From assembly GCA_964369115.1 (NCBI GenBank), contig CAYJED010000004.1, positions 16,428 through 80,427 of the forward strand: a stretch of DNA of 64,000 nucleotides, read 5' to 3'. The stretch's first letter is position 1, and each line of letters starts with the position of its first letter. Below, piece after piece: positions 36,012-63,480 of the stretch. The notes under the pieces were generated by a model. The model searched no databases. It was not told the origin of the DNA and worked only from the letters and a program-made list of their open reading frames with translations. The stretch is from an uncultured Candidatus Saccharibacteria bacterium (GTDB taxonomy: Bacteria; Patescibacteriota; Minisyncoccia; Phycocordibacterales; UBA5272). The position numbers were made by a program, and so were the translations under genes.

Positions 36012-36042
36012 TTCATCATAAAAATGATAAAATATAACTATA

Positions 36043-39325: not shown

Positions 39326-39377
39326 CAAAAACAATAACTCATTATCGTGGTAAAATACATATAAGTTATAGAACTTT

Positions 39378-42091: not shown

Positions 42092-42125
42092 GAAGCCTGT
42101 GTCCTAGCCGATAGACGATAGGGCC
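42051..42125 (-). tRNA. tRNA-Glu (anticodon CUC), CCA encoded
   Basis: The reverse complement folds as a cloverleaf: acceptor GGCCCTA/TAGGGTC, anticodon stem CAGGC/GCCTG with loop UUCUCAU, T-arm CGGAG-TTCGACT-CTCCG, 3' ACCA. Confidence 0.7.
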
Positions 42126-45065: not shown

Positions 45066-45252
45066 TAAAGGTTTAGTTGTAGATCTTTTACTCCCCGCAT
45101 ATACAAAAATTCCGAGAAAGAATCTCGGAATTTTTGTATATGCGGTGTATGTGAGTTAAGTACCCACAGGTCTAGACCCTGTAAAGGTATTTTAGCATCC
45201 TTTTCTTACTCTAAAATATGTATGTGGGTCACTATTGTTTTTAGATAAAATA

Positions 45253-45924: not shown

Positions 45925-46074
45925 AAATTATGTATCTGGGTCACTCCGATACTTTTTTATTTTTGCGGTGTATGTGAGTTAAGTACCCACGGTCTTAAGT
46001 GTTATAAGGCTATTTTAGCACTTTTTCTCTATGGATGCTAAGGCAAGTGAGTCGGGTATTCCAAATGCCAACAA

Positions 46075-46830
46075 ATGCCAATTTTTGGTATAATACAAGG
46101 TATGACAGTCGGCGAATTAGTAGCACAAATAGCATCTCAGAACTCCTCTCCCACATCAAAGGATATGGCTTCATCTATTGAGAAAGTCAGAGAAATCTAT
46201 GAGAAGAATTTCGGACCCGAAGCTCCTTTTAGGAAAGCTTTAGAAAAGAATATGGAAATGGTAAATTCTGCCGTTGAATCTGTAAGACCTCAACTTGAGA
46301 CAATGGAAAGACTTCGGTCTTCAATTCCGCACATAACACTTCCAAGGATGATAGAAGAAGATGATTATTTGCTTCCCGAAATGATAAACCCAATTCGTGA
46401 AGTGAGAGTAACTAATATTCACGAACTAACTGGTTACAAATCTAACAGGCAAAGCGATGTTGTAGTCGCTGAATATCTACTCCCTAAAAATGCCACATGG
46501 GGAAGTTTGGATATTAAATTTTTAGATGGACATATTGTTCAAGTTTCTTACCCAAGAATGAAATCAATGAAATTTGATTACAAAGATATGGGATTTTTGA
46601 ATATAAAAAGAAATATACCAAATTTAAAATGGGAACTGTTTAGAGCAATCGCAGAAAATGGAGGTGCACTGACAAAAGATAATTTTGATAGAAGGTTTGG
46701 TAGAAATGTTAAATATGAACTCAATAAAGCTCTCAAAAAGTTTTTTGGTATGAATACTGATCCAATAACCCATTACACTAAATGGCATGGATACCGTACC
46801 AAATTCTCTCTCAGAGGTGAACGATATTAG
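46075..46830 (+). CDS. hypothetical protein
   Basis: 251-aa ORF; no family recognised. Confidence 0.35.
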   Translation: MPIFGIIQGMTVGELVAQIASQNSSPTSKDMASSIEKVREIYEKNFGPEAPFRKALEKNMEMVNSAVESVRPQLETMERLRSSIPHITLPRMIEEDDYLLPEMINPIREVRVTNIHELTGYKSNRQSDVVVAEYLLPKNATWGSLDIKFLDGHIVQVSYPRMKSMKFDYKDMGFLNIKRNIPNLKWELFRAIAENGGALTKDNFDRRFGRNVKYELNKALKKFFGMNTDPITHYTKWHGYRTKFSLRGERY

Positions 46831-46964
46831 AATTGTCATTTTATTTGGAATGACGCTTAAAAGACTTTTTACTATATAGGTAAAAAGTCTTTTATTTTAT
46901 AGATAATCTCATCAGTCAGTCATAGAAAGTAAAAAGAAATTGTCATTTTGTCATTCAATGACGA

Positions 46965-48305
46965 ATGTTAGTAGAAGAGTTTAATAAGATCCTCTTCTCT
47001 AAAAACCCTATGGCAAAAGAAAAGATCATATGGTCTGCAGTTGCTCGCAAACTGCAAGACCTGATCAAAAACGGATACAATCCGCGCAAGTTAAGCGAGA
47101 ACGAACGAAGAGACTTGGAAAGGTCAATAAAGGAATTCGGAACAGTTGTTCCAGTGATCCTCAATACTGGCTCCCGAACCAATATTATTATTGGTGGCGA
47201 ACAACGAGTCAAAGTATATGCCGATCTCGGCATAGCAGAGATTGAGTGCATGATACCCTCCCGAGAGCTAACGCTTGAGGAAGAGCGAGAACTCAATCTT
47301 CGTCTCAACAAGAACACGGGTTCGTGGAATGAAGAACTTCTCAAAGAGTTTGATATGAGCCTGCTTCTTGATATCGGTTTTGGAGATGAAGAATTACAAA
47401 ACCTATTTGATGATGTTGACCTTGTCGAGGATGACTTTAACCTTGAAAAAGCACTCAAGGAAACAATTAAGCCGAAAGTAAAATCAGGAGAAATTTGGGA
47501 GCTTGGGAAACATCGCCTACTTGTCGGCGATTCTACGGATCAGGAACTCGTGCAGAAGCTCATGAACGGAGACTTGGCGGACATTGTGTACTGCGACCCG
47601 CCATACAACATCGGCTTGGACTATTCCAAAGGAGTTGGAAACAAGGAAAAATACCAGGGTTCGTATTCAGGCAAGGACGACTCCAAGAAAGACAGCGACT
47701 ACATGGATTTCTTGGACAAGAGCATGGAAGTGGCAAAAAGTATCAGCAAGAAAAATGCCCACTTCTTCTATTGGTGCGATTCCTCATATCTTTGGATGGT
47801 TCAAACCTTGTATGCAAAACACAAGGTAGATTCCAAGCGTGTCTGCATGTGGATCAAGAACAACCAGAACCCTACTCACAAGATTGCCTTTAATAAAGTG
47901 TACGAGCCGTGTGTATACGGAACGCTCGGCAAGCCATATCTCAATACAGGAATGAATAACACCAACGAGATCCTTAACCAAGAAGTAACCACTGGCAATC
48001 AAGTACACGATGAAATCCTAGACATGATAGATATCTGGATTGAGAAAAGGGACAACGCTCAGTCGTACCAGCACCCTACGCAAAAACCCGTCACCTTAAA
48101 CGAGAAACCATTTAAGCGTTGCAGTTCTCCACTGCATATCATCTACAGCGGATTTGCAGGAAGCGGTAGTGACCTAATTGCCGCCGAAGAACTACATCGC
48201 GTATGGCGTGGCGTTGAGAAAGATCTCATCTTCGCAACCATTGTCATTGACCGATGGGAGAAATTTACCAACCTTAAGGCAAAGAAAATCTATGAAAATA
48301 AATAA
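46965..48305 (+). CDS. ParB-like nuclease domain fused to DNA methyltransferase (DPPY, N6-adenine/N4-cytosine class)
   Basis: N-terminal ParB-like region (...GYNPRKLSENERRDLERSIKEFG..), then the DPPY motif IV (IVYCDPPYN) and, C-terminal to it, an FAGSGS AdoMet-binding motif with HPTQKP. Confidence 0.75.
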   Translation: MLVEEFNKILFSKNPMAKEKIIWSAVARKLQDLIKNGYNPRKLSENERRDLERSIKEFGTVVPVILNTGSRTNIIIGGEQRVKVYADLGIAEIECMIPSRELTLEEERELNLRLNKNTGSWNEELLKEFDMSLLLDIGFGDEELQNLFDDVDLVEDDFNLEKALKETIKPKVKSGEIWELGKHRLLVGDSTDQELVQKLMNGDLADIVYCDPPYNIGLDYSKGVGNKEKYQGSYSGKDDSKKDSDYMDFLDKSMEVAKSISKKNAHFFYWCDSSYLWMVQTLYAKHKVDSKRVCMWIKNNQNPTHKIAFNKVYEPCVYGTLGKPYLNTGMNNTNEILNQEVTTGNQVHDEILDMIDIWIEKRDNAQSYQHPTQKPVTLNEKPFKRCSSPLHIIYSGFAGSGSDLIAAEELHRVWRGVEKDLIFATIVIDRWEKFTNLKAKKIYENK

Positions 48306-49041
48306 AAGAGACACATTCAAAGTTGGCGATCACATCATTGCTTGCGGTGATTCGCTGGACAAGGCATTTGTCGGCAAGGTCATAGGAAGCAATAAGATAC
48401 GAGCGGTCGTCACTGATCCTCCATACGGCGTTGCGTATGTTGAGAATAAGAAAGGCTTTCTGAAACTTAGCTCTGATGAAGATAAAGCTATAACCAACGA
48501 TCATATCCAAACCGAAGAAGAGTATGGGGAGTTTACCCGCAAATACTTGGGAGCGGTTATTCCATATCTTGAAGAATACAATGCGGTCTACATTTTCAAT
48601 GCCGATCCGATGTTCCCGAGCCTACGCTCTGGCATGAAGTCCGCTGGTTTCTACTACAGCCAAATGATAATTTGGCTCAAGAACCAGCCCGTCATGAGCC
48701 GAAAGGATTACTTGTCGATGTATGAACTCATTGCATACGGTTGGTTCGGTAAGCATCGAATGGAACGGTCTAAAGCGAGAAATGTTATCTACCACCCCCG
48801 ACCGACCAAATCCAGACTTCACCCGACACAAAAACCGATCGGACTGCTCAGAAAAATCATCCCTAACTCAACAAAGGTCGGTGACATTGTTTACGATCCA
48901 TTCCTTGGAAGTGGCTCAACCGCTATTGCCTGTGAACACTTAGGTCGAAAGTGTGTCGGTATCGAGCTTGATGAAGCATATGTAGAAACTACGCTCAAAA
49001 GACTCGAAAAGCTCACTGGCGAAACAGCGATAAAGCTCTAA
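48292..49041 (+). CDS. DNA methyltransferase (DPPY class), second subunit or paralog
   Basis: VVTDPPYG, HPTQKP and DPFLGSGST motifs. Overlaps the upstream methyltransferase by 14 nt. Confidence 0.75.
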   Translation: MKINKRDTFKVGDHIIACGDSLDKAFVGKVIGSNKIRAVVTDPPYGVAYVENKKGFLKLSSDEDKAITNDHIQTEEEYGEFTRKYLGAVIPYLEEYNAVYIFNADPMFPSLRSGMKSAGFYYSQMIIWLKNQPVMSRKDYLSMYELIAYGWFGKHRMERSKARNVIYHPRPTKSRLHPTQKPIGLLRKIIPNSTKVGDIVYDPFLGSGSTAIACEHLGRKCVGIELDEAYVETTLKRLEKLTGETAIKL

Positions 49042-49045
49042 TGAA

Positions 49046-49420
49046 ATGATGGAAGAAGACTTTTCAAAAGATCCATACAAGAAGCAAGTCTACGAGACTT
49101 ACGCTCTTTGGAAGTCTTTTCCTTCGTTTCTCAAGGGACAGCCAAGAGTAGCGCTTGAGAAATTTGGTATTGAGGAGGAATCAGCGTTTGAACTGCTTGC
49201 CATAAAGACTCAGGCTGAATTCTCGAAAACATACAAGGTCGATACCGGCACGCTCACGGATTGGAATAAGAGACTTGAGAAAGATGGACTAGTCAAAGAC
49301 ATCAACTCTTGGGCAAGAAAGCTGACTCCGAATGTTATCTTTGCGCTCTATAAGAACATCATCAAAAGCGGCAAAGCTCATGAAGTGAGAGCTTGGTTTG
49401 AGATTATAGAAAACAACTAG
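49046..49420 (+). CDS. hypothetical protein
   Basis: 124 aa, starting 4 nt after the methyltransferase stop. Possibly HTH-like. Confidence 0.35.
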   Translation: MMEEDFSKDPYKKQVYETYALWKSFPSFLKGQPRVALEKFGIEEESAFELLAIKTQAEFSKTYKVDTGTLTDWNKRLEKDGLVKDINSWARKLTPNVIFALYKNIIKSGKAHEVRAWFEIIENN

Positions 49421-49421
49421 T

Positions 49422-49622
49422 ATGAAAAAGATTAACTTAGAAGAAATAAATAGTATTCTCTCGGACACCATTCACAAGGTGTTGAATAAGGAAATACCAC
49501 TCAAGCAGGCATCGGTGATTGCTCGTCTTACAGCAACGCTTTCAAAGAACATTGCGAACACTGATCTTAAAGATCGGGTTGAATTCTTGGAAAGCATACT
49601 AAGAAAAAATAAAGACTCATGA
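49422..49622 (+). CDS. hypothetical small protein
   Basis: 66 aa, translationally coupled (ATGA overlap with the next gene). Confidence 0.3.
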   Translation: MKKINLEEINSILSDTIHKVLNKEIPLKQASVIARLTATLSKNIANTDLKDRVEFLESILRKNKDS

Positions 49623-51109
49623 AAAATCTCAGTAACATTTTAAGAAGATCATCAATAACGCCTTTTGAACGAGTGAAGACGCTTGTTCATAATGATATTC
49701 ACAAAGAAAAGACTGGCGAAAGCATGTTGTCTGACTCCGAAGTGTATGTATTGATAGATAGCTGGAACCCAAGAGTAATCGAGGCAAAAGAATATAACAG
49801 ATATGTGGGTATTGTTCGCTTAGAAAATACCATGAAGATGGATGCTCAAATGTTTTTAAACAGAGCGGAAATAGCACTGTTGCGAAATCAAAGAGTGCTT
49901 GATAGTTTCGTTTTCAATGCAACCTTGCTTAAGGCGTTAGCGGAGCAAGAATTTCTCAAGGATATCCCGAGAGAAGAAAGCATGCAGTTTCTTACTGAGC
50001 ATACTTATTTTGAGTATCAAAAACTGCTTCATATTTTCACCTTCAACAATCTACCGAAGGAAATTCAAAATGATTTATTCCTGCTCGATGAATATGCTAA
50101 CTGCGACAAACGATATTTAGAGGACGAGGTATTTCTTTATGAGAGATTTAAGGACGGTACTGAGTTAAGCAAACAAGACAAAGATCTCATCATTGGTCGT
50201 ATCTACTCTGGTATGTACTACGAGGGAGCAAAGAAGATAAAGAAAAGTACATCAGAGAAAGATGGATTTTTGATCCACCACTTCTTTGGTGAATTACCCG
50301 TAGAAGATATCTTCAAAAAGATGGCATACGATGCACATATTCAATACGACGATAGTGATTTTGAAAGCAAAGTCTTATCAGGACTAGAGGAATATGTAAA
50401 AAACAAAAATATAAGCATGGAGTCTTTGGTTAAGGATGCAATATCTCGTTGGCTAGACGAAGGGTTGTTCGTGAATGACTACTCACCGATTTTTATGAGC
50501 GAGCGTTTCAATACCTGGAATGGAAACACTAAAAAGAATCATAAGGAGCTATTCACAGCTTGGTACACGGAACTGAAAAAGTCCGAGCAGGTTTTTCAAA
50601 GTTTGTTTGATGCAAAGAAGCTAGAAAAAGGATCTGTCGAGATAGAGATACTGGGAATGAAGAAAACGCTGGAGATTGTAACCGGCACTAGTTTGCTCGC
50701 TTGCAAAGAGAATCTGCTCTTTATTTCTGAATATAAGCGACAGGTTGAAATGCTTTTACCAGCTGCAAATATGCATCTCTTTGTGAAGAAGCATGCGTAT
50801 CCAGTTAAAAGCTACAAAACACTTTGCGAGTTTAAGAACCTAGCTGAAAGATTTTCCATTCAGTTTGATATTGATATAACCGATCAATACGATCATTTCA
50901 TTAATTCATACAAAGAAGAAGTTGCTCTTTTAAACCACAGTATGAGTAGGCTACTAGATACGGCAACCGAATATCTCTACACGGAAAAATCTTCGCATTA
51001 CATTCCCGATATTAATGAGGGTGGTTTCTTGTTTGATACCGAGAAGGATGACGGTGTAGCTGAAATTGCTAATTTATATTCTGAGGAGTTTAAAAAGCTA
51101 GGAATGTAA
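49619..51109 (+). CDS. hypothetical protein (496 aa), last gene of methylase operon
   Basis: Long ORF with no recognised motif, coupled to the upstream genes. Confidence 0.4.
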   Translation: MKNLSNILRRSSITPFERVKTLVHNDIHKEKTGESMLSDSEVYVLIDSWNPRVIEAKEYNRYVGIVRLENTMKMDAQMFLNRAEIALLRNQRVLDSFVFNATLLKALAEQEFLKDIPREESMQFLTEHTYFEYQKLLHIFTFNNLPKEIQNDLFLLDEYANCDKRYLEDEVFLYERFKDGTELSKQDKDLIIGRIYSGMYYEGAKKIKKSTSEKDGFLIHHFFGELPVEDIFKKMAYDAHIQYDDSDFESKVLSGLEEYVKNKNISMESLVKDAISRWLDEGLFVNDYSPIFMSERFNTWNGNTKKNHKELFTAWYTELKKSEQVFQSLFDAKKLEKGSVEIEILGMKKTLEIVTGTSLLACKENLLFISEYKRQVEMLLPAANMHLFVKKHAYPVKSYKTLCEFKNLAERFSIQFDIDITDQYDHFINSYKEEVALLNHSMSRLLDTATEYLYTEKSSHYIPDINEGGFLFDTEKDDGVAEIANLYSEEFKKLGM

Positions 51110-51219
51110 ATTTTTTATTTTCCTTTACCACCTTTCTGAACAGGCTGACCTTGGCTTGGTGTTGGTCGTGGCGCTGGCTGGGGTTTTGGCGCTGGTTTAG
51201 AGTTATTATTTGCCATATA

Positions 51220-51669
51220 TTAGATAAAAATCATTAGCAATATACCGACTAGGAATAATGTAAGTGCTTGTTTGTAATCCTTGTTCTTGCCTTCCAAAGC
51301 TTTTGAATTATCATCAAACGCTTTTTGATAATCTGAGAGTAATTGATCTAAAAGGGTTTCAGTTTTCATTGAACGATAATCTTTTGGATCATTATAAAAA
51401 TCCACTACGCCCGTATTATATGTTTTAACTTTCAATGTTTGCCAAAGGAAATATCCAGAAAAGAGCAGAATCATTATCGGTATTACTTGAAGAGCATGGA
51501 TATGATGAAAACTTTGTATGTAGAAAATGAGAATAGCTCCCTCTAGTGGAATCATTACTCCTGCTTTTGCATCAAGTCCGTTATCGGCATTGAGTAAATA
51601 ATCAACCTTGCTTCTTGTTGCATTTACAAGTATTTCTAGTGATTTGGTTTTGTCTTCATGCTCGGTCAT
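51220..51669 (-). CDS. small membrane protein co-transcribed downstream of Type III res
   Basis: 149 aa with two central TM helices and one C-terminal TM helix. Its start overlaps the res stop by 4 nt. Confidence 0.4.
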   Translation of the reverse strand: MTEHEDKTKSLEILVNATRSKVDYLLNADNGLDAKAGVMIPLEGAILIFYIQSFHHIHALQVIPIMILLFSGYFLWQTLKVKTYNTGVVDFYNDPKDYRSMKTETLLDQLLSDYQKAFDDNSKALEGKNKDYKQALTLFLVGILLMIFI

Positions 51670-53960
51670 ATAACATCCTTTAAATTATCCCAACCGTTCA
51701 AGCTCGGAGAGTAAGTATATTTCTTTCCTGAATTGAGTTTCCAACCATTCGGGCCGTCTTGAACAGCAATACCACCAGCTATATTCTTTTTACCTTTGAG
51801 CCATTCTTGCAGCGCCTCGGCTTTGTATTTAGTATCGGCAATTTCAGCAGTAGATCCTTTCTTGGTGTCTACGATCCAAACCTTGTCTTTTGTCTTAAAA
51901 ATCCAATCAGGATAAAAGAGTTTTTCTTTATTCTCGTCAGGGTTGTAGTAAGCAAGCGAGAAATATTCGCTTCCTGAATCACCGTTTTTGTACCACCATT
52001 CAATAGCTTTGTGCTCTTCTAGGAATTTAATGAATTCCTTTTCGTTATCTTCGCCTTTGTAATCTCTCTCGATATAAAACGGAGCCATAGCCGATTTCTT
52101 CACACTCATTTCTTCGTACTGGTCGGTATAGAAAAGACTCTCACGAGGAATCTCAATTTGCTCCGTTCGTTTTGCGCGCTCAGATTTGCGATTTACTTCT
52201 TGTTCACGGATTGGACGATAGACTGCAAGAGCATCACCGATCACAGGAGCGAGAACGCTTGCTTGGTTCAACAGGTCGTTAACGATAATGTTGTAAATAA
52301 CATGGCGTGTTTCTCCTGTATTGTTCAATAACCAAACATTAAGAGCGGTCTTGAGCTTTCCCCATGAACGCTCTGGTGCAAATTTCTTGTTTTCGTCAGT
52401 CTGCTTTGCAATAAGGTTAAAGCAGAATAAGTTGTATAGGCGTTCAAGATCATACTGGGACATTTCTTGATCGTGGCTTCCACCTTCTGCCAGTAGCTCT
52501 TTTGTGAAATTATCATAATCGTCAATTTCCACATTAACGATTAGTCCATTCGTAACTGTTACAGATATATCTAAACCTTTGTCTTTCAGTCGCTTGAGTA
52601 CCTTAGTTTCTTTTTCATTGATTCCAAAATACTTATCTGCTACTTTTTGAAATACGTCTTGGAAAGAATCACCAAGGTCGTTATAGTCGGTACGACTCAT
52701 GAATACGGAATCAACCATAATAGGCTTAACAGATTGCTTGCGGTAACTTCCGTAAATGGCAGGTCGGTTTTGTTCTGTAGATTTAGAGTAACCCGTGATG
52801 ACTTCGTTTCTTTTGTAGTTGGTATAAAGATAACCTAGATTTAATTCTGGCTTTGGAAAATGAAAACCTAGAGGCATACGAAGAATACGGCCAACAGTCT
52901 GAATAGCAAAAGTTGGGTTTTTAATCTCACGGAACATCACAAGCACACTTGCGCGAGGACAATCCCAGCCTGTCGCGGCGGCTTGTTTAAAAAGAAGAAA
53001 TGATACTGGCGAATTGTTTCTCTCGATGTCTTCAAGGTTGATCTTATCTTCGGAAAGCCACACCGCAATCTCATGCTCAAAAACACCTTTTGATTTAAGA
53101 AAGTCAGTTATCAAAGCTTGTTTTGTTACTCCACCTGACTCCTTACTTGCTTTGTCGTCATTTGGAAGCTGTACCAATACGAGAGGGTTCACTTCAACAC
53201 CAATTTCTTTGTAATACGCCACAAGCTCGGCTCGTTTGTTATATGCGAGAGTCAAAAGAATATCGTCCTGATCCATTCCCGCAAATTCTTTTTTAGCCAA
53301 ATCTTCTTCTGTCTGAAAAATAATCTTTTCTTTGATAAGCCCCTCACGCACAACATCGGCACGATTAACGTCTACAGTCACGCCTACTGTTTGCGGGGTA
53401 GCAGAAACACCGATAATAATTCGGGGCTTAATAACATTCTGGATAAGGTCGCTTGCAAGCACCGTGGACGAGGCGATATGTTCCTCGTCGATGATAAGTA
53501 CCACTTCGCGACCTTGCGAGTGTGTAGCTTCAAGATATTCGTCAAAAGTAGTATTCAATTCTCCCTCAGTGCGGAGCTTACGGTTTGTTTGCGCGCGAGA
53601 CACCAACTTCTGCCAGTTTATGAAAAAGACACCGCTTCGAGGGATGCAACCGTCACGGAGATCATTCAAATCAAGGAGCGTATTTTCGCTTGCACCGCCG
53701 TAATATGAAAAAAGTTTGTCTTTGGATTGCATCGCAAGCGAGTCTGAGTTTGTGATCCACAGAAATCCAACGTCAGCATTCTGGAAGCGTGGATCAGAAA
53801 CAATATCGCGGAGAAACTGCGCCATCATAATTGTCTTACCCGATCCAGTTGGAGATTTAAAAGTCAGGTTTAAATTACGATCGCCAAGTTTCCAAAGCGT
53901 CAGGAATTTCTCCTTGAGTTGTGAGATTGCAGTTTCTTGGAATGGTTTAAGTGCGAACAT
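51666..53960 (-). CDS. res: Type III restriction enzyme, Res subunit (SF2 helicase-nuclease)
   Basis: KPFQETAI, Walker A SPTGSGKT, the DEEH box, SAT motif, and helicase motif VI-like QTVGRILR. Confidence 0.8.
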   Translation of the reverse strand: MFALKPFQETAISQLKEKFLTLWKLGDRNLNLTFKSPTGSGKTIMMAQFLRDIVSDPRFQNADVGFLWITNSDSLAMQSKDKLFSYYGGASENTLLDLNDLRDGCIPRSGVFFINWQKLVSRAQTNRKLRTEGELNTTFDEYLEATHSQGREVVLIIDEEHIASSTVLASDLIQNVIKPRIIIGVSATPQTVGVTVDVNRADVVREGLIKEKIIFQTEEDLAKKEFAGMDQDDILLTLAYNKRAELVAYYKEIGVEVNPLVLVQLPNDDKASKESGGVTKQALITDFLKSKGVFEHEIAVWLSEDKINLEDIERNNSPVSFLLFKQAAATGWDCPRASVLVMFREIKNPTFAIQTVGRILRMPLGFHFPKPELNLGYLYTNYKRNEVITGYSKSTEQNRPAIYGSYRKQSVKPIMVDSVFMSRTDYNDLGDSFQDVFQKVADKYFGINEKETKVLKRLKDKGLDISVTVTNGLIVNVEIDDYDNFTKELLAEGGSHDQEMSQYDLERLYNLFCFNLIAKQTDENKKFAPERSWGKLKTALNVWLLNNTGETRHVIYNIIVNDLLNQASVLAPVIGDALAVYRPIREQEVNRKSERAKRTEQIEIPRESLFYTDQYEEMSVKKSAMAPFYIERDYKGEDNEKEFIKFLEEHKAIEWWYKNGDSGSEYFSLAYYNPDENKEKLFYPDWIFKTKDKVWIVDTKKGSTAEIADTKYKAEALQEWLKGKKNIAGGIAVQDGPNGWKLNSGKKYTYSPSLNGWDNLKDVI

Positions 53961-53963
53961 AGA

Positions 53964-55700
53964 TTAAATGCGGTTAATTTCTTTATAAACTTCAAGGATC
54001 GGTTCGGGAATATCTTCGACACGGATAGTCCTCGTAGAATAATCATTCTTATACTCATTCTTACCCCAACCAAAAACATACAGCGTTGTTGGCTGATTTT
54101 TCTTCTCAAGAATCTTTATAATTTCTTTAAGTTTTGTTTTATCTTCCGTGAAATAGATAGCGGTTAACTTTCCGTTACCTTCAAAAATTTGCCACCACTC
54201 ATTTTTATCGACTTCATTTGAGGTGTTTTCTCGGAGTGCGATCATCTCTCCAGCCTGATAAGTAATTTTAATTTTTGCCTCATCAGAAATACGATGTAAC
54301 TTATCTACGTTTACCATATCGGTTTTAAAGTAAGATAAATTCCCACTAAGACCCTCGACTTTCACTCCTTTTCTGTTTTTATATCCTTTAATAACGCGTT
54401 TCAATCGCTCATATGTAACTTCTTCACAGATCTTATTTTCATTATTCGTACAAAGAATAAACTTACGATTACCACCATCTTGTTTATTGAGTTCAAGAAC
54501 GGCATGACCTGTAGTACCAGAGCCAGCGAAAAAATCGAGAATAACAGCATCTCTTTTGTCACTCATAACTCTTAAACTATCCATTACTGCGTAGAGAGAT
54601 TTTGGATAAGAAAATATTTGAAGTTCTGCGAAAATATCTTTTAATAGATTTGTTCCGTAAGCAGTCGAAGAATATTCTTTCTTATCCCACCAAGTCATAG
54701 GCAAAATTCCATCTTCGTTCATTCGTCCCTTTACATAAATCTGAAGTTTGCTTTTTTGTATACGAGATTGAAATTCATCCTGTTCATTCATGAATCTTTC
54801 AATACCCCAACGCCAACGTCTTTGCTTGCCGTCATCATCAATTGGATAGATTATTTCCTCTCCCTTTTTAGGCTTTTCTAATAATTGGTAATCTTCTAAA
54901 TTGTCGTCCCATGTTAATTTAGGCAACCTAATTGAATCTTTGGTTGCAAAGATCGGGTAGTACATTTTTGGAGACTCTTCTCGCATACTTCCGGGCTTGC
55001 GGAAGTTAACCCATTCAAAAGCACCATTCGCGTCTTTTTCATCATATCGGTCAATTTGAGACTGGTTTCTATCAAGTCTGGACACAAAAGCGGATTCTGT
55101 TTTTCCAAAAAAGACGGCATATTCGTGGGTAATAGATATTCCTTTTGTTGTAGATCTGCCCGCTGGATTGTTTCTGATAGGCACAGTTCCTAAATGATTG
55201 AATTCTCCAAAAATTTCTTCCATCAAGAGAATCAGTCTTGAAATTTCATAATCATCAATCGTGACGCAAATTATGCCATTTTCTTTGAGCAAGTTTTTAG
55301 CCAAACGCAACCTCTTTTCCATAAAAGAGATCCACTTGCTATGGCGAAAATTGTCGTTCTTATCTACATAGTCATTGTTGTATCGCCAGTCTGTTGCGCC
55401 GGTATTGTATGGCGGATCCGCGTAAATAACATCGACTGCGCCGCGATGCGTATAGTTCAAAACAGAAAGCGAGTGGTAATTATCTCCCTCGATTAGAATG
55501 TTCGTCGGGAGTGAATTATCAGAAACTAACTTTCTACTTTTAACTTCTTTAAGAAGAGGAATATTCGTCTCGCATTGCAAAACGACATCCTCTGGTTTAT
55601 CTTCCCAGACGAGTCCGTATTTTTTGCGATTCTTTAATTTTTTTATTTCAGATTGTAAATCTGAAATTTGAGCGCGTAGCTCTTTTTCTGTTTGAGACAT
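53964..55700 (-). CDS. mod: Type III restriction-modification system Mod methyltransferase
   Basis: IYADPPYNTG (motif IV) and FFAGSGTTGHA (motif I). 578 aa, immediately upstream of res. Confidence 0.85.
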   Translation of the reverse strand: MSQTEKELRAQISDLQSEIKKLKNRKKYGLVWEDKPEDVVLQCETNIPLLKEVKSRKLVSDNSLPTNILIEGDNYHSLSVLNYTHRGAVDVIYADPPYNTGATDWRYNNDYVDKNDNFRHSKWISFMEKRLRLAKNLLKENGIICVTIDDYEISRLILLMEEIFGEFNHLGTVPIRNNPAGRSTTKGISITHEYAVFFGKTESAFVSRLDRNQSQIDRYDEKDANGAFEWVNFRKPGSMREESPKMYYPIFATKDSIRLPKLTWDDNLEDYQLLEKPKKGEEIIYPIDDDGKQRRWRWGIERFMNEQDEFQSRIQKSKLQIYVKGRMNEDGILPMTWWDKKEYSSTAYGTNLLKDIFAELQIFSYPKSLYAVMDSLRVMSDKRDAVILDFFAGSGTTGHAVLELNKQDGGNRKFILCTNNENKICEEVTYERLKRVIKGYKNRKGVKVEGLSGNLSYFKTDMVNVDKLHRISDEAKIKITYQAGEMIALRENTSNEVDKNEWWQIFEGNGKLTAIYFTEDKTKLKEIIKILEKKNQPTTLYVFGWGKNEYKNDYSTRTIRVEDIPEPILEVYKEINRI

Positions 55701-56004
55701 AGGGGTACAGTTCTATGTCTCGGCTATCCATATTTGGTTTGTATAGAAACGGCAAAGAGGGACAGCCGAGCCTGTACCCCATAATGGTGCTACCCCGAAA
55801 GGTTCCTGTTATGGAACTCGGACTGCCCCTCTTTGCCTATAACAGGTAAGAGAAAACAGTCCTTTCGGGGACGAAGCACTAAATATATAAACACTATGGG
55901 GTACAAATGAACTCTAACATAAAAACACCTCTAAATAAAGGCTTATTTAGAGGTGTTTACCAACAGTCTGGACTTTGCGAGTGCTTCGCGTCATTTAATA
56001 GTAT

Positions 56005-56328
56005 GTGGACGATATTGAGGCCGTTATCAAGGCCAGCCAGCATTTCAAATATGAGGAATCCGAGGTAAGTTATGCTTTCAACAAAGCCTCTGACTTACCG
56101 GAATCTAAGTCGAATCTGAAGCGAGCCATAAAGGAGCGCATTCAGCTTTTGTGCGCTTCATATATTTCACTGGCTTCTTTCTTGCCTGATGAGGATGCGG
56201 AATATTTGCTCGGCCTTCATGGAGAGCAGAAGAAAAAGCGATCAATTAAAATCATGATGCGAATGATGAAAGAAATGGATAAGCTCGAAAAAGAGATCCG
56301 TAATTTTGATCCGTTTTCACCTCTATAA
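56005..56328 (+). CDS. hypothetical protein (GTG start; duplicate at 59374..59697)
   Basis: 107-aa ORF downstream of a 15-bp-stem hairpin. No clear RBS. Confidence 0.25.
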   Translation: MDDIEAVIKASQHFKYEESEVSYAFNKASDLPESKSNLKRAIKERIQLLCASYISLASFLPDEDAEYLLGLHGEQKKKRSIKIMMRMMKEMDKLEKEIRNFDPFSPL

Positions 56329-56419
56329 AAAATTGAGCGGACTCGCTTCGCGAGTAAATGCCAAAGGGTCAAAGAACCCAAGAGTCAAAGAATCAGAAAA
56401 ATACAAAGAGACAACAGGT

Positions 56420-58261
56420 CTAAGATTCAGACTTGCGGAGACGGAACACGAACTCAACGTCCGGAATCCACGCGCTGTCGGGCGACGCCCAACTGCGGCG
56501 CAGCCACAAACCGCCAACGTCGCGTTCGAGGCGGAAGACGTACGGGCTGCCGCCGGAGTCAGCGATTTGCTTCATACCAATACGTACCCATTCATTGAGA
56601 GGTTGATCTTTGTATTTAAGACGATAGTTAGGACCAGTATCAGGAGGACACAACTCCAAGCCAAGCGTTTGTGCGCGTTCGTAAATTTGGTCAGTGGTAG
56701 CGCTTGTCTTGAATCCGAGGTCAGCGACAGTAAGACGGATGAGTGTTGCTTCTTCGCGAGTCTTTCCGGGAATGAAGTCGCGATTTTTCATCATAGACTT
56801 TGCGTAATCAGAAATATTTATGTGAGCCGCTTCCATTTCAGCAATTAACTGTTCAGTAGTCTTGCCTCCGATCTCTACGCTTTCTCTGCGGATTTTCTTT
56901 TCAGGGAATGAAGTGTAGACATGTTCAAGACCTTCCGGCAATTTTTGGAATATGCCTGGTTCAAGCTGTCCGACATAGGCTTTGGTGTCTTTTGTGATCT
57001 GACTTGGCACGTGAGCAATATCTTCTTTTGTACACTCAAAAATAACAAGCATGTCTTCCTCGGTGTTTCGCCCTTTGCGTAGTTCAGCGATACGAGGGTC
57101 TGTCTGATAACCGAACCCTTCAATTGATGAATTGATTTCGTAGAGGAATACTAAATCGTCTTTGGTAAAGGGTTCATCCTGTTCACGCTTCTGGTCGAGA
57201 GCGGTCAGTATTTTCATATCTCCGCTTTTCTTGCGGTACGCATCAGCCTCACCACCAAAGTCTTGGAGTTTTGCATCAAGTGCTTCCTGCATAATTGGCT
57301 CTACGCCCTGATGCGGAAGAATACCTCTCACTTCGCCGATTCTATTGTCGCCCTCCATGCGGATCGCAAGACGAGGTTGGGTTGGTTCGCCGTTTGAATC
57401 ATTCGTGTAATAAACATAAAAGTCGCCATTCTCTATTTGTGTTTCTGCTGTCGATTTACCGGCAGTACACCAACCAGTTCCTTTTCCTTCAAGTGACTCA
57501 AATAATTGTTCGGCATCGCCGCTCTGTCCTTGTTGATATTTTTTCCATTCACCTTTAACTTCCTCGCGGTTCTCCATTGAAGCGGCGAGAGATTTTGAAA
57601 TGAGTTCGGCGTATAAGCTCGGAAACTTTTGAGAAAAGGCTTCGCGGATTTCAGGCTCTTTGAGATTCTTATTGTCTTCTTTTACCTTGAGATAAATATC
57701 AGCAATCTGTGCCAACGGCTCGCGGTAGATATCGGGGTATGGTGCAACAGTACTATCGGTACGCTTTTTGAACTCGCCACGCTCCTTGTCGAACTGTGAA
57801 AGTTTAGTGATATTTTTCCAAACGAAGTACTTGAACCACGCTGGGTACATAGCATCGTCTGAAGTAAGGTACTCCATCCACGCATCAAGCGATGCCCGCT
57901 GATCTTCAATAGCAACATCCATCATTTGTTCACGGACATTGTCAGGAATTTCCTCTACTGCTTGTCCGCGCTCGCGGGCGATGCGTTTCTGTAATTCAAA
58001 ATATGATTCAGGAAAATTCTCCTTCTTTATGATGAACGCATCATATATTTTATCGCGAAACATTTCGAGATTGCGTTCGCGTTTCTTTTCGTCAGGGTTA
58101 AGAAAAACATTCTCCAAGCGATCCATGTATGCCTCGATACGCTCGGCAGGATCGTTCGGCATTTTTTCGCCAGTGTGTCGCTCCTCTCGCACAACTGCCC
58201 GATTTACCTCGGGAGAGGTTTGGAGTTCTGGGCTTTTAAGATGGAGCGGATGTTTTTCCAT
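56420..58261 (-). CDS. DGR target protein with C-terminal CLec-like variable region (copy 1)
   Basis: 613 aa. The C-terminus SGGSPYVFRLERDVGGLWLRRSWASPDSAWIPDVEFVFRLRK corresponds codon-for-codon to the Asn-rich TR. There is no signal peptide. Confidence 0.8.
   Translation of the reverse strand: MEKHPLHLKSPELQTSPEVNRAVVREERHTGEKMPNDPAERIEAYMDRLENVFLNPDEKKRERNLEMFRDKIYDAFIIKKENFPESYFELQKRIARERGQAVEEIPDNVREQMMDVAIEDQRASLDAWMEYLTSDDAMYPAWFKYFVWKNITKLSQFDKERGEFKKRTDSTVAPYPDIYREPLAQIADIYLKVKEDNKNLKEPEIREAFSQKFPSLYAELISKSLAASMENREEVKGEWKKYQQGQSGDAEQLFESLEGKGTGWCTAGKSTAETQIENGDFYVYYTNDSNGEPTQPRLAIRMEGDNRIGEVRGILPHQGVEPIMQEALDAKLQDFGGEADAYRKKSGDMKILTALDQKREQDEPFTKDDLVFLYEINSSIEGFGYQTDPRIAELRKGRNTEEDMLVIFECTKEDIAHVPSQITKDTKAYVGQLEPGIFQKLPEGLEHVYTSFPEKKIRRESVEIGGKTTEQLIAEMEAAHINISDYAKSMMKNRDFIPGKTREEATLIRLTVADLGFKTSATTDQIYERAQTLGLELCPPDTGPNYRLKYKDQPLNEWVRIGMKQIADSGGSPYVFRLERDVGGLWLRRSWASPDSAWIPDVEFVFRLRKSES
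56432..56564 (-). repeat. DGR variable repeat VR (copy 1)
   Basis: The reverse complement matches TR 58554..58686 at 110/133 positions; all 23 mismatches are opposite TR adenines. Confidence 0.85.
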
Positions 58262-58553
58262 ATATGGTTCGCATTATAGCATAAATTACTGCGAAATAAA
58301 GAGGTTTTTGGTATACTATTTTCAGATTGGTTTCATTGAACGGCTACGGTTTTTCAAGACCAATTTACTTCATGTAGATTGAGAGCGCGAACGGTTACGG
58401 CTTTTCGCGGAGGATGTGCATTGAGGTCTTTAAAAAGAAAAAACTTGGTGCGACGCGCTGGTTGATTTTCGATCACGCATAACGATACAGCACGGCTTCT
58501 GGCATATCATGTGCGCTTAAGTCGGCGGTGAGATGGATGGCGTGCCGCACAAA

Positions 58554-58686
58554 CGCTGACTCCGACGGCAACCCGAACGTCTTCAACCTCGAACGCAACG
58601 ATGACGGTTTGTGGCTGAACAACAATTGGGCGAAACCCGACAACACGTGGAATCCGGACAATAAGTTCGTGTTCCGTCTCCGAAAC
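58554..58686 (+). repeat. DGR template repeat TR (copy 1)
   Basis: Non-coding AAC-rich repeat (translating as ...SDGNPNVFNLERNDDGLWLNNNWAKPDNTWNPDNKFVFRLRN), followed by a hairpin ccgcgac..gtcgcgg. Confidence 0.85.
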
Positions 58687-58710
58687 TATTTTCTTTTCCG
58701 CGACCTCATG

Positions 58711-59121
58711 TTACATGTCGCGGTTTTTCTTTTCAGGGTTGGCAAGATTTTTCTTCCAACCGCCAAACATCTTGCCAACTTCTTCGAGTTTCAATGCAAC
58801 GCTCTCACAGTGAGCGTTTGAAATAAGCTTGCCCTCCCATGCAACAGAAACAAGAAACTTTAGTGTGTCTAACACCAAAATACACTCATTAATTTTCTCC
58901 TCTTTCTTATCTTTTTCTATAAAATAGGCAATGTATGACAATTCAAGCAGATCGAGAAACTTGTTCTCAATTCGTGAGCCAATTGTATAGCGTGCCCCTT
59001 TAGCAATATGCGGAACAATATTAACCCAAATCAAATAGCCCTCTTTAATCCTGTTGAGAATCGAGGCGTTGTTGGTGTGCGAAAGTCGGGGGGGGGGGGG
59101 GAGATTAGTAGCTCGGTTCAT
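58711..59121 (-). CDS. avd: Avd-like four-helix-bundle accessory protein (copy 1)
   Basis: About 130 aa with HIAKGARYTIGSRIENKFLDLLELSYIA...LEEVGKMFGGWKK, resembling the Avd/23S-rRNA-IVS four-helix-bundle family. A poly-C run (14 nt) encodes PPPP near the N-terminus. Confidence 0.6.
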   Translation of the reverse strand: MNRATNLPPPPRLSHTNNASILNRIKEGYLIWVNIVPHIAKGARYTIGSRIENKFLDLLELSYIAYFIEKDKKEEKINECILVLDTLKFLVSVAWEGKLISNAHCESVALKLEEVGKMFGGWKKNLANPEKKNRDM

Positions 59122-59211
59122 ATCTACAATAATATCATTTCTGTCGAAAACTTACTCGTCGCATGGCGAGAATTCCTCCATGGAAAACGGACTGCCCCTC
59201 TTTGCCTATAA
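59008..59211 (+). pseudogene. truncated 5' fragment of the DGR reverse transcriptase (copy 1 of duplication)
   Basis: Identical to the first 60 codons of the 62377.. ORF (...ENLLVAWREFLHGKR), then interrupted by the duplication junction. Confidence 0.6.
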
Positions 59212-59373
59212 CAGGTAAGAGAAAACAGTCCTTTCGGGGACGAAGCACTAAATATATAAACACTATGGGGTACAAATGAACTCTAACATAAAAACACCTC
59301 TAAATAAAGGCTTATTTAGAGGTGTTTACCAACAGTCTGGACTTTGCGAGTGCTTCGCGTCATTTAATAGTAT

Positions 59374-59697
59374 GTGGACGATATTGAGGCCGTTATCAAG
59401 GCCAGCCAGCATTTCAAATATGAGGAATCCGAGGTAAGTTATGCTTTCAACAAAGCCTCTGACTTACCGGAATCTAAGTCGAATCTGAAGCGAGCCATAA
59501 AGGAGCGCATTCAGCTTTTGTGCGCTTCATATATTTCACTGGCTTCTTTCTTGCCTGATGAGGATGCGGAATATTTGCTCGGCCTTCATGGAGAGCAGAA
59601 GAAAAAGCGATCAATTAAAATCATGATGCGAATGATGAAAGAAATGGATAAGCTCGAAAAAGAGATCCGTAATTTTGATCCGTTTTCACCTCTATAA
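59374..59697 (+). CDS. hypothetical protein (duplicate of 56005..56328)
   Basis: Exact duplicate. Confidence 0.25.
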   Translation: MDDIEAVIKASQHFKYEESEVSYAFNKASDLPESKSNLKRAIKERIQLLCASYISLASFLPDEDAEYLLGLHGEQKKKRSIKIMMRMMKEMDKLEKEIRNFDPFSPL

Positions 59698-59788
59698 AAA
59701 ATTGAGCGGACTCGCTTCGCGAGTAAATGCCAAAGGGTCAAAGAACCCAAGAGTCAAAGAATCAGAAAAATACAAAGAGACAACAGGT

Positions 59789-61630
59789 CTAAGATTCAGA
59801 CTTGCGGAGACGGAACACGAACTCAACGTCCGGAATCCACGCGCTGTCGGGCGACGCCCAACTGCGGCGCAGCCACAAACCGCCAACGTCGCGTTCGAGG
59901 CGGAAGACGTACGGGCTGCCGCCGGAGTCAGCGATTTGCTTCATACCAATACGTACCCATTCATTGAGAGGTTGATCTTTGTATTTAAGACGATAGTTAG
60001 GACCAGTATCAGGAGGACACAACTCCAAGCCAAGCGTTTGTGCGCGTTCGTAAATTTGGTCAGTGGTAGCGCTTGTCTTGAATCCGAGGTCAGCGACAGT
60101 AAGACGGATGAGTGTTGCTTCTTCGCGAGTCTTTCCGGGAATGAAGTCGCGATTTTTCATCATAGACTTTGCGTAATCAGAAATATTTATGTGAGCCGCT
60201 TCCATTTCAGCAATTAACTGTTCAGTAGTCTTGCCTCCGATCTCTACGCTTTCTCTGCGGATTTTCTTTTCAGGGAATGAAGTGTAGACATGTTCAAGAC
60301 CTTCCGGCAATTTTTGGAATATGCCTGGTTCAAGCTGTCCGACATAGGCTTTGGTGTCTTTTGTGATCTGACTTGGCACGTGAGCAATATCTTCTTTTGT
60401 ACACTCAAAAATAACAAGCATGTCTTCCTCGGTGTTTCGCCCTTTGCGTAGTTCAGCGATACGAGGGTCTGTCTGATAACCGAACCCTTCAATTGATGAA
60501 TTGATTTCGTAGAGGAATACTAAATCGTCTTTGGTAAAGGGTTCATCCTGTTCACGCTTCTGGTCGAGAGCGGTCAGTATTTTCATATCTCCGCTTTTCT
60601 TGCGGTACGCATCAGCCTCACCACCAAAGTCTTGGAGTTTTGCATCAAGTGCTTCCTGCATAATTGGCTCTACGCCCTGATGCGGAAGAATACCTCTCAC
60701 TTCGCCGATTCTATTGTCGCCCTCCATGCGGATCGCAAGACGAGGTTGGGTTGGTTCGCCGTTTGAATCATTCGTGTAATAAACATAAAAGTCGCCATTC
60801 TCTATTTGTGTTTCTGCTGTCGATTTACCGGCAGTACACCAACCAGTTCCTTTTCCTTCAAGTGACTCAAATAATTGTTCGGCATCGCCGCTCTGTCCTT
60901 GTTGATATTTTTTCCATTCACCTTTAACTTCCTCGCGGTTCTCCATTGAAGCGGCGAGAGATTTTGAAATGAGTTCGGCGTATAAGCTCGGAAACTTTTG
61001 AGAAAAGGCTTCGCGGATTTCAGGCTCTTTGAGATTCTTATTGTCTTCTTTTACCTTGAGATAAATATCAGCAATCTGTGCCAACGGCTCGCGGTAGATA
61101 TCGGGGTATGGTGCAACAGTACTATCGGTACGCTTTTTGAACTCGCCACGCTCCTTGTCGAACTGTGAAAGTTTAGTGATATTTTTCCAAACGAAGTACT
61201 TGAACCACGCTGGGTACATAGCATCGTCTGAAGTAAGGTACTCCATCCACGCATCAAGCGATGCCCGCTGATCTTCAATAGCAACATCCATCATTTGTTC
61301 ACGGACATTGTCAGGAATTTCCTCTACTGCTTGTCCGCGCTCGCGGGCGATGCGTTTCTGTAATTCAAAATATGATTCAGGAAAATTCTCCTTCTTTATG
61401 ATGAACGCATCATATATTTTATCGCGAAACATTTCGAGATTGCGTTCGCGTTTCTTTTCGTCAGGGTTAAGAAAAACATTCTCCAAGCGATCCATGTATG
61501 CCTCGATACGCTCGGCAGGATCGTTCGGCATTTTTTCGCCAGTGTGTCGCTCCTCTCGCACAACTGCCCGATTTACCTCGGGAGAGGTTTGGAGTTCTGG
61601 GCTTTTAAGATGGAGCGGATGTTTTTCCAT
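59789..61630 (-). CDS. DGR target protein (copy 2, identical)
   Basis: Identical 613-aa product, VR included. Confidence 0.8.
   Translation of the reverse strand: MEKHPLHLKSPELQTSPEVNRAVVREERHTGEKMPNDPAERIEAYMDRLENVFLNPDEKKRERNLEMFRDKIYDAFIIKKENFPESYFELQKRIARERGQAVEEIPDNVREQMMDVAIEDQRASLDAWMEYLTSDDAMYPAWFKYFVWKNITKLSQFDKERGEFKKRTDSTVAPYPDIYREPLAQIADIYLKVKEDNKNLKEPEIREAFSQKFPSLYAELISKSLAASMENREEVKGEWKKYQQGQSGDAEQLFESLEGKGTGWCTAGKSTAETQIENGDFYVYYTNDSNGEPTQPRLAIRMEGDNRIGEVRGILPHQGVEPIMQEALDAKLQDFGGEADAYRKKSGDMKILTALDQKREQDEPFTKDDLVFLYEINSSIEGFGYQTDPRIAELRKGRNTEEDMLVIFECTKEDIAHVPSQITKDTKAYVGQLEPGIFQKLPEGLEHVYTSFPEKKIRRESVEIGGKTTEQLIAEMEAAHINISDYAKSMMKNRDFIPGKTREEATLIRLTVADLGFKTSATTDQIYERAQTLGLELCPPDTGPNYRLKYKDQPLNEWVRIGMKQIADSGGSPYVFRLERDVGGLWLRRSWASPDSAWIPDVEFVFRLRKSES
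59801..59933 (-). repeat. DGR variable repeat VR (copy 2, identical to copy 1)
   Basis: Offset of 3369 from VR copy 1. Confidence 0.85.
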
Positions 61631-61922
61631 ATATGGTTCGCATTATAGCATAAATTACTGCGAAATAAAGAGGTTTTTGGTATACTATTTTCAGATTGGT
61701 TTCATTGAACGGCTACGGTTTTTCAAGACCAATTTACTTCATGTAGATTGAGAGCGCGAACGGTTACGGCTTTTCGCGGAGGATGTGCATTGAGGTCTTT
61801 AAAAAGAAAAAACTTGGTGCGACGCGCTGGTTGATTTTCGATCACGCATAACGATACAGCACGGCTTCTGGCATATCATGTGCGCTTAAGTCGGCGGTGA
61901 GATGGATGGCGTGCCGCACAAA

Positions 61923-62055
61923 CGCTGACTCCGACGGCAACCCGAACGTCTTCAACCTCGAACGCAACGATGACGGTTTGTGGCTGAACAACAATTGGGC
62001 GAAACCCGACAACACGTGGAATCCGGACAATAAGTTCGTGTTCCGTCTCCGAAAC
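61923..62055 (+). repeat. DGR template repeat TR (copy 2)
   Basis: Offset of 3369 from TR copy 1. Confidence 0.85.
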
Positions 62056-62079
62056 TATTTTCTTTTCCGCGACCTCATG

Positions 62080-62490
62080 TTACATGTCGCGGTTTTTCTT
62101 TTCAGGGTTGGCAAGATTTTTCTTCCAACCGCCAAACATCTTGCCAACTTCTTCGAGTTTCAATGCAACGCTCTCACAGTGAGCGTTTGAAATAAGCTTG
62201 CCCTCCCATGCAACAGAAACAAGAAACTTTAGTGTGTCTAACACCAAAATACACTCATTAATTTTCTCCTCTTTCTTATCTTTTTCTATAAAATAGGCAA
62301 TGTATGACAATTCAAGCAGATCGAGAAACTTGTTCTCAATTCGTGAGCCAATTGTATAGCGTGCCCCTTTAGCAATATGCGGAACAATATTAACCCAAAT
62401 CAAATAGCCCTCTTTAATCCTGTTGAGAATCGAGGCGTTGTTGGTGTGCGAAAGTCGGGGGGGGGGGGGGAGATTAGTAGCTCGGTTCAT
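62080..62490 (-). CDS. avd: Avd-like accessory protein (copy 2)
   Basis: Identical to copy 1. The G14 tract lies at 62457..62470. Confidence 0.6.
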   Translation of the reverse strand: MNRATNLPPPPRLSHTNNASILNRIKEGYLIWVNIVPHIAKGARYTIGSRIENKFLDLLELSYIAYFIEKDKKEEKINECILVLDTLKFLVSVAWEGKLISNAHCESVALKLEEVGKMFGGWKKNLANPEKKNRDM

Positions 62491-63480
62491 ATCTACAATA
62501 ATATCATTTCTGTCGAAAACTTACTCGTCGCATGGCGAGAATTCCTCCATGGAAAACGGAGCCGTAAAGATGTAGCCCAATTTTCAGTGCATCTGACCGA
62601 TAATATACTTGCCCTTCATCGTGAACTCGTTGATAAGACCTACCATCACGGTCCATACAAAGCTTTTCGTATCAACGATCCTAAGCCGCGCGATATTCAT
62701 AAGGCGAGTGTTCGTGATCGGTTACTTCACCATGCTATTTATAGAATTTTGTATCCATATTTTGATCCTAAATTTATTTTTGATTCATACTCATGTCGTC
62801 GTGGCAAAGGCACGCACCGTGCGCTTGATAGATTCCGAGACTATGCGCGCAAAGTTTCTAAAAATCATATCCAAACGGTGTGGGTGTTAAAGTGCGATAT
62901 CAGAAAGTTTTTTGCAAACATTGATCACAGAATTTTGGAAGATATTTTGAAACTCAGGATGGGAGATGAAGATGTGATACGGCTTTTCAGAGAAATAGTC
63001 GGCAGTTTTAATACCAAAGACAAACACGGTGTCGGTCTCCCTCTTGGCAATTTGACGAGCCAGCTACTAGTAAACATTTATATGAATGAGTTTGATCACT
63101 TTCTCAAGCGAGATTTGAAAATTAAATACTGCGTCAGATATGCGGATGATTTTGTTATCCTGCATAAAGACAAAAAATATTTAGAAAGTGTCTTGCCAAA
63201 AATCTCTGCATTTTTAGAGACAAGGCTCAAGCTTTCTCTGCATCCCGATAAGGTATTTATAAAAACATTCGCTTCGTGCGTGGACTTTCTTGGTTGGGTG
63301 CATTTTCCGCATCATCGCGTACCGAGGACATCAACAAAAAAGAGAATGTTCAGAAATTTAAATCAAAACCCAAAAAAGGAATCACTAAGTTCCTATGCTG
63401 GACTTCTGAGTCACGGCGATACACATGAATTACGAGAGACGATATTTGAGCGGTATTCAGACAATAAGGAGAAAAACTGA
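62377..63480 (+). CDS. DGR-type reverse transcriptase (5' boundary uncertain; ORF overlaps avd on the opposite strand)
   Basis: RT motifs: RINDPKPRDIHKASVRDRLLHHAI (1-2), LKCDIRKFFANIDH (3), GLPLGNLTSQLLVNIYM (4, the DGR-type SQ variant), YADD (5), LHPDK (6), FLGW (7). Confidence 0.8.
   Translation: MRNNINPNQIALFNPVENRGVVGVRKSGGGGEISSSVHIYNNIISVENLLVAWREFLHGKRSRKDVAQFSVHLTDNILALHRELVDKTYHHGPYKAFRINDPKPRDIHKASVRDRLLHHAIYRILYPYFDPKFIFDSYSCRRGKGTHRALDRFRDYARKVSKNHIQTVWVLKCDIRKFFANIDHRILEDILKLRMGDEDVIRLFREIVGSFNTKDKHGVGLPLGNLTSQLLVNIYMNEFDHFLKRDLKIKYCVRYADDFVILHKDKKYLESVLPKISAFLETRLKLSLHPDKVFIKTFASCVDFLGWVHFPHHRVPRTSTKKRMFRNLNQNPKKESLSSYAGLLSHGDTHELRETIFERYSDNKEKN

Follow-up and report, generated by a model that had tools for sequence, protein, structure and literature searches.

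Gene duplication has been named as the origin of diversity-generating retroelements (DGRs) with more than one variable repeat (VR), including duplication of a DGR followed by loss of a reverse transcriptase (RT) (Schillinger et al. 2012, PMC3521204), and a recent duplication of paralogues has been reported in cyanobacteria (PMC7517822). In a DGR of Stenotrophomonas, eight target genes stand in tandem with only five unique VRs among them, and the authors flagged a possible assembly error; in the same paper, 90% of the DGRs of the candidate phyla radiation (CPR) were of architecture B3, i.e. template repeat (TR)-(avd)-RT (Wu et al. 2018, PMC5758913). In the present study, we analysed a DGR in a 64,000-nt stretch of DNA from an uncultured Candidatus Saccharibacteria bacterium (GenBank assembly GCA_964369115.1, contig CAYJED010000004.1, positions 16,428 to 80,427; hereafter named the window), in which the target gene, TR and avd are found twice in tandem before one complete RT gene. 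Probably, this arrangement is real and arose when the target, TR and avd of an active DGR of the CPR type were very recently duplicated in tandem.

The locus resembles the described multi-target DGRs (PMC3521204, PMC5758913) in having more than one VR-bearing target beside one RT, and two of its relatives, L045 and L111 (L numbers denote related loci and public contigs), represent the diverged end state of such an arrangement. It differs from them in that the copies are still 100% identical, that a TR, avd and a stub of the RT gene were duplicated along with the target, and that the event appears to be polymorphic between near-clonal populations, where it would have occurred twice with different end points. 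The Stenotrophomonas DGR likewise has targets in tandem whose VRs are identical; for the window, however, the join between the copies was checked against independent assemblies and reproduced. As in architecture B3, the host belongs to the Patescibacteria and avd lies on the opposite strand between TR and RT, whereas the target of the window's lineage is inverted relative to TR and RT and is co-oriented with them in the relatives L002 and L003. The novelty is modest because gene duplication is already the accepted origin of multi-target DGRs, and the window shows this known process at zero age and in a polymorphic, recurrent form, as an early and fairly ordinary step toward the multi-target form. 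That origin had previously been inferred from old, diverged paralogues, and here the stage of zero divergence would be visible while the DGR rewrites its VR. The locus thus offers a natural system for studying the rate at which duplicated VRs diverge, the relevance, if any, of a second TR and avd, and possible selection for the duplication.

Tandem duplication and amplification mediated by microhomology are familiar in bacteria from the work of the Roth and Andersson school. The present case is like them in its exact tandem unit, its junction microhomology of 4–5 nt, its polymorphism and its likely instability, and unlike them in its host, an uncultured CPR bacterium.

Two identical units joined at a 4-nt microhomology

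Direct comparison of the two units (55819..59187 and 59188..62556) gave 0 mismatches in 3369 nt. The identity runs on for 0 nt leftward and for 4 nt (CGGA) rightward, a k-mer offset scan agreed with these limits, and the ORF (open reading frame) map of the locus recurs with a period of 3369. Each unit contains, in order, a 107-aa ORF (+ strand), the target gene of 613 aa (− strand), whose 3' end holds the VR, the TR (+), avd (−) and the 5' end of the RT ORF. A preliminary description of this DNA had reported two identical 3369-bp units whose VRs encode the same residues, and both statements hold, the VRs being identical as the units are identical. It was also right that copy 1 carries the start of the RT ORF only (ORF 59008..59211; 37 codons before the join if the GTG start is used) and that the full RT is present after copy 2 only.

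The same description had seen at the junction a 4-bp microhomology and a degenerate ttcct..atggaa similarity to the left flank. The microhomology was confirmed as CGGA. The ttcct..atggaa patch is present too, but it is weak, with 12/20 ungapped matches, a level reached by approximately 4% of random site pairs sharing 4 nt (p about 0.04); it is not significant, and we rejected it as homology at the join. A site-specific mobile cassette that moves by excision and integration was rejected as well: the ORF map and domain search revealed no recombinase in 55819..59187, the unit ends share only 4 nt rather than att-like repeats, and the right end cuts the RT ORF.

Because the joins at this locus have a microhomology of only 4–5 nt and the wider similarity is not significant, we propose that illegitimate recombination, or template switching during replication, may have connected two sites sharing only CGGA, the first in the intergenic stretch left of the cassette (55819) and the second 60 codons into the RT ORF. 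The product would have two targets, two TRs and two avd genes, with one intact RT serving them. The identity of the units, the anatomy and natural activity of the DGR, the recurrence of the join and the single copies of relatives are shown by the data, and the mode of formation, the function of both copies as targets and any selective benefit are inferred.

The join in independent assemblies and single-copy relatives

Public contigs with the window locus were gathered by exact-protein look-ups across many runs and assemblies. In these look-ups the 107-aa ORF, the 107-aa form of avd and the methylase had matches. The target, the longer avd (136 aa), the RT in either version and a 67-aa ORF running across the join had none. 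The join 59187/59188 (join A) was found again in contig L098 (ENA ERZ2271983, the same as L102), which aligns unbroken to window 58408..61207 and is identical across 59187/59188, with 12 G instead of 14 in the poly-G tract and 20 differences inside VR2. Because this independent assembly repeats the join base for base with a different VR2, join A itself appears to be real and is unlikely to be a pure assembly artefact. In addition, a noisy 614-nt contig (L108) has an end resembling join A rather than the RT gene. Of two Logan contigs, L104 (ERR4405440) stops exactly at 59191, the final base that both continuations have in common, and L088 (ERR4405441) exactly at 55848, i.e. 55818+30. With a Logan graph k-mer length that we take to be 31, these are the positions where the graph would be expected to branch for join A.

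Position 1 of L194, a Logan contig of an approximately 90% identical relative (SRR24788625), corresponds to window 59187; the contig thus ends one base before join A, 86 nt past an 18-G tract. This end could reflect a breakpoint that recurs, or a technical limit imposed by the preceding homopolymer.

Joins with microhomology are typical of library chimeras, formed for example during amplification, and the coverage of the ENA contigs is low (2–4x), both of which would fit an origin of the joins in the libraries. Chimeras, however, do not recur base for base, and join A is identical in the window and L098, as is a second join (join B, see below) in two assemblies. We therefore consider such an origin very improbable.

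Single-copy forms of the locus were also found. L099 (SRR13608707, 99.9% identical) is continuous from the RT gene, across the end of the unit and the TR, to a point inside the VR, with neither break nor branch, and would thus stem from a population without join A. L001 (about 87% nt identity) has the same flanks with one cassette copy, and L195 (87–91% identity) has one copy with the same RT side and the same methylase/Res side. Because these two relatives with the same flanks and the near-identical L099 show a single copy, the duplication appears to be derived and polymorphic between populations of a near-clonal lineage, not fixed. Exact duplication of the cassette was seen in none of 160 related loci, several of which have diverged second targets (L045, L111, L063 and L179). 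A scan of JGI metagenomes with a 24-mer of the unit end gave no match, and a protein-guided JGI scan gave only relatives at ≤93% identity, none of them with an exact cassette duplication.

The preliminary description had left three options, a very recent duplication, an inactive DGR or an assembly artefact. The repeat of join A in L098 and the single copies between the same flanks in L001 and L195 favour the first. The repeat in L098 also speaks against the third for the join itself, and an assembly effect could still apply to the copy number and to the apparent identity of the VRs.

A second tandem duplication at the same locus

A different tandem join, join B, was present in L091 (ERZ2272111; L091 3190..3240) and in L092, the same as L100 (ERZ2227285; L092 1..70), in which 58640 (nt 90 of the TR) is joined to 55794. 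It has a 5-nt microhomology (CCCGA), a period of 2842 nt and a wider similarity of 10/20 matches that is not significant. Join B starts 25 nt left of the unit start in the window, and leaves copy 1 with a truncated TR and without avd. The target and the 107-aa ORF lie inside both types of duplication, and type A also includes the whole TR and avd. To judge from these contigs, tandem duplication appears to have taken place at the locus at least twice, with different end points.

Both left end points fall within 25 nt of each other in the structured intergenic stretch 55701..55910, a coincidence that is only suggestive. This stretch has a predicted RNA fold of −81 kcal/mol (z −5.6), a DNA hairpin z of −3.8 and an imperfect inverted repeat at 55751-70 and 55819-37; an Rfam search of it gave no match, and among the relatives it is conserved only in L001. 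Logan contigs of several runs break on both sides of 55719..55838, L093–L095 carry T55838A, and further alleles of this segment probably exist.

The same end points could be read as a trace of retro-duplication, in which the DGR RT would have copied a long + strand transcript with its 5' end near 55794/55819, extending past the TR in the direction of the RT gene, after which the cDNA would have been integrated beside its source. Consistent with this, the left ends of both types lie within 25 nt of each other in a structured stretch, with + strand features downstream of it, and one type ends inside the TR. A DGR RT, however, misincorporates at template adenines, here at 24/40 TR adenines, and the + strand of the unit contains 873 A, yet there are zero differences between the copies. 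We rejected a cDNA origin for this absence of adenine mutagenesis, and regard it as scarcely credible.

Activity of the DGR and identity of the two VRs

In the left flank, public contigs show 100% identity to the window for as much as 11.7 kb (L084, window 43964..55718), and their differences from the window in the unit lie almost entirely in the VR (11–22 of 12–23 per contig). Eleven VR copies on otherwise identical contigs comprise ~9 distinct sequences, and all but 5 of the differences are at TR adenines. Contigs L099, L104 and L091 break off inside the VR, which suggests that VR variants coexist within one sample. Because otherwise identical contigs differ almost only in the VR, at TR adenines, we rejected inactivity of the DGR; on this comparison of contigs, the DGR is active in nature with its VR under ongoing diversification.

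An inactive DGR, in which the VRs would have stayed identical after an older duplication, had been one of the options of the preliminary description. The identity of VR1 and VR2 is the only observation in its favour. It was not borne out, given the VR differences at TR adenines between otherwise identical contigs of many runs, the contig breaks inside the VR, which suggest variation within samples, and the intact RT and avd ORFs; we consider it extremely doubtful.

The lineage is remarkably clonal across datasets, as contigs of unrelated-looking SRR, ERR and DRR runs and of ENA and NCBI assemblies are 100% identical outside the VR. A literature search by run accession found no paper.

VR1 and VR2 may truly be identical, if there was no homing since the duplication in the window's lineage, or their identity may be an effect of the assembly consensus. 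The distance from each VR to the closest unit boundary is 614 nt, too far for short reads to phase the two VRs. An assembler walking a graph loop prints identical copies, and so does a short-read or polished assembly by construction. The earlier argument that identical VRs are not expected in an active DGR is therefore weaker than stated, as assembly gives identical copies and L098, which shares join A, departs from the window at 20 sites of VR2. From L098 it would follow that at least one VR has been rewritten since the join arose, or that the join arose twice. We rejected this different VR2 as proof that the VRs of the window were collapsed, since the window's lineage may have had no homing since the duplication. 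The two VR copies of L091 show 3 adenine-site differences, but all of them are within the last 13 nt of the contig and were not counted as proof of independently diversified copies.

A related case was found in L045 (6126..6942 and 8367..9182), which has two tandem paralogous targets (679 and 714 aa) that are about 75–80% identical upstream and have in common a 390-nt block of 100% identity, including identical VRs with 24 A-site changes compared with the TR. Either gene conversion or repeat/assembly collapse could account for this block. As a practical caution, identical VRs in assembled multi-target DGRs, such as those of the window and L045, are not evidence of inactivity.

Copy number in the assembled genome

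The copy number could instead be an effect of the assembly, if the join were present in a minority of cells or in a circular by-product and the graph loop had been walked twice, so that the printed two-copy genome would not be the genome of most cells. The copies are identical including the 14-G homopolymer, as such a loop would give, no branching is seen where the unit ends in the near-identical run of L099, and the identical VRs of L045, in a 390-nt block of diverged paralogues, are the pattern expected of repeat collapse. The contig moreover holds a second exact tandem duplication, 33386..42051 (to 42056 with the repeat), with a period of 4333 and a 5-nt GGTGA at the joins. The repeated segment corresponds to a small integrative element, inserted at the 3' end of tRNA-Glu (42051..42125, − strand), in which a large serine recombinase gene runs across the element end and encodes 595 aa at the internal join and 571 aa at the tRNA. 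Three hypothetical genes and a LOOT RNA (Rfam RF03000, 84.5 bits) are also found in the element. In another metagenome-assembled genome (MAG), GCA_052035195.1 (L189), it is single-copy, on a 4569-nt contig that breaks 110–126 nt outside the element ends.

Several points weigh against a real duplication. The second exact tandem duplication in the same contig may mean that the assembler unrolled graph loops. Outside the window, join A is seen in one good contig (L098), one noisy contig (L108) and two coincidences of contig ends. The ENA assemblies may share one study, so that their independence is one of runs and not necessarily of populations, and L104, L108 and L194 end ~90 nt past the poly-G tract, making a technical cause possible for the end of L104.

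A loop in the graph, however, itself requires reads with the join, and an independent assembly whose VR is different contains the join too. It is unlikely that a 3.4-kb circle that does not replicate and interrupts the RT gene would become abundant enough to appear in an assembly, and join B shows that tandem duplication happens at this locus. Taken together, we think an assembly effect on the copy number rather unlikely, and prefer a real and very recent tandem duplication.

Anatomy of the cassette

The features of the locus are collected in Table 1. All 24 mismatches between TR and VR are at TR adenines (A>G 13, A>T 6 and A>C 5), and 16/40 adenines are unchanged. Because of this restriction to adenines, the locus is a genuine DGR, and it has the TR-(avd)-RT layout typical of CPR. 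The B3 architecture of CPR DGRs is reportedly also connected with the work of Paul and colleagues from 2017. In the 613-aa ORF, the VR takes up codons close to the C-terminus, and its final ~18 nt (GTTCGTGTTCCGTCTCCG), which are GC-rich and resemble an initiation of mutagenic homing (IMH) sequence, are identical in TR and VR. Among the public contigs, the TR does not vary.

Table 1. Coordinates of the duplicated DGR locus in the window
Feature	Position	Strand	Remarks
Duplication unit copy 1	55819..59187		3369 nt; identical to 59188..62556
Duplication unit copy 2	59188..62556		3369 nt; join 59187/59188 with 4-nt CGGA microhomology; join also in L098
Structured intergenic stretch	55701..55910	+	holds left end points of both duplication types (55794, 55819)
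Hypothetical 107-aa ORF	copy 1 56005..56328; copy 2 59374..59697	+	exact protein on many public contigs
DGR target gene, 613 aa	copy 1 56420..58261; copy 2 59789..61630	−	from ORF map
VR	VR1 56433..56567; VR2 59802..59936	−	target 3' end; 135 nt, 82% identical to TR
TR	TR1 58551..58685; TR2 61920..62054	+	from TR/VR repeat search
avd	copy 1 58711..59121; copy 2 62080..62490	−	136 aa from ATG 59121 or 107 aa from TTG 59034
Truncated RT 5' fragment at join	59008..59187	+	60 codons from ATG, or 37 from GTG 59077
Complete DGR reverse transcriptase	62377..63480	+	367 aa from ATG, 344 aa from GTG 62446; RVT_1 E 2e-23
Poly-G tract, 14 nt	59088..59101; copy 2 62457..62470		in 113-nt antisense overlap of avd and RT 5' ends

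The RT translation holds the motifs LGNLTSQ and YADD, and GTG 62446 is the start chosen by gene callers on other contigs. The RT relatives all come from Patescibacteria MAGs, and more than 200 relatives adjoin TR/VR pairs. The proteins of the window are recorded as MBP6912352-54 (locus tag KBB86_) in a MAG assigned to Candidatus Pacebacteria/Paceibacterota. The avd product matched Pfam bAvd (E 1.2e-11, 45.4 bits, cut-off 40) and NCBIfam DivGenRetAVD (E 5e-16, 58.8 bits, under the cut-off of 80). For the target, no match was found in Pfam, NCBIfam or the PDB sequences; more than 2300 homologues are present in Patescibacteria, none of them with a Pfam domain. An AlphaFold2 model of the target had a mean pLDDT of 60.5, with values <50 over residues 539–595, and was too poor for a fold search, such as for the C-type-lectin-like or Ig-like fold expected around the VR of a DGR. 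The 107-aa ORF had no family match in Pfam, NCBIfam and further database searches.

Poly-G tract in the avd/RT overlap

The poly-G tract is 9–18 nt long in near-identical and close contigs, and a tract of 8–12 G lies at the same place in 33/80 relatives. In L008 a GA repeat replaces the poly-G, and both long ORFs are open. In the window, the tract length modulo 3 sets whether the canonical RT start is in frame and which form of avd (136 or 107 aa) is made. The tract is possibly a phase-variable switch of the DGR, or its variation is a homopolymer sequencing error, as homopolymer lengths from short reads are unreliable.

On a more speculative reading, which we put forward only tentatively and think more likely wrong than right, the locus would be a hot spot at which target-doubling tandem duplications arise repeatedly and reach high frequency in clonal CPR populations by selection for a larger hypervariable repertoire, and the poly-G/GA repeat would be a phase-variable on/off switch of the whole retroelement. 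If this were true, selection for a larger hypervariable repertoire would here be caught at its first step.

Other features of the window and of related loci

A third tandem duplication lies at 1390..1617, where 114 nt (38 codons, in frame) are present twice with 1 mismatch at the last base. The small protein concerned (ORF 882..1619) has a hydrophobic N-terminus and a Cys-rich C-terminus, and the repeat belongs to the latter. Directly left of the DGR cassette there is a Type III-like restriction-modification pair (Res 764 aa and Mod 578 aa, 51666..55700), which is absent from the relative L194.

The orientation of the target relative to TR and RT varies between loci. It is co-oriented with them in L002 (7322..9272) and L003, and inverted in the window (59696..61650), L001, L004 and L005; comparison of the window with its relatives revealed no terminal inverted repeats flanking the inverted target segment. 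In L011, L012 and L109 the target is found downstream of the RT gene on the opposite strand. Judged from these arrangements, the position and orientation of the target are very plastic in this DGR family.

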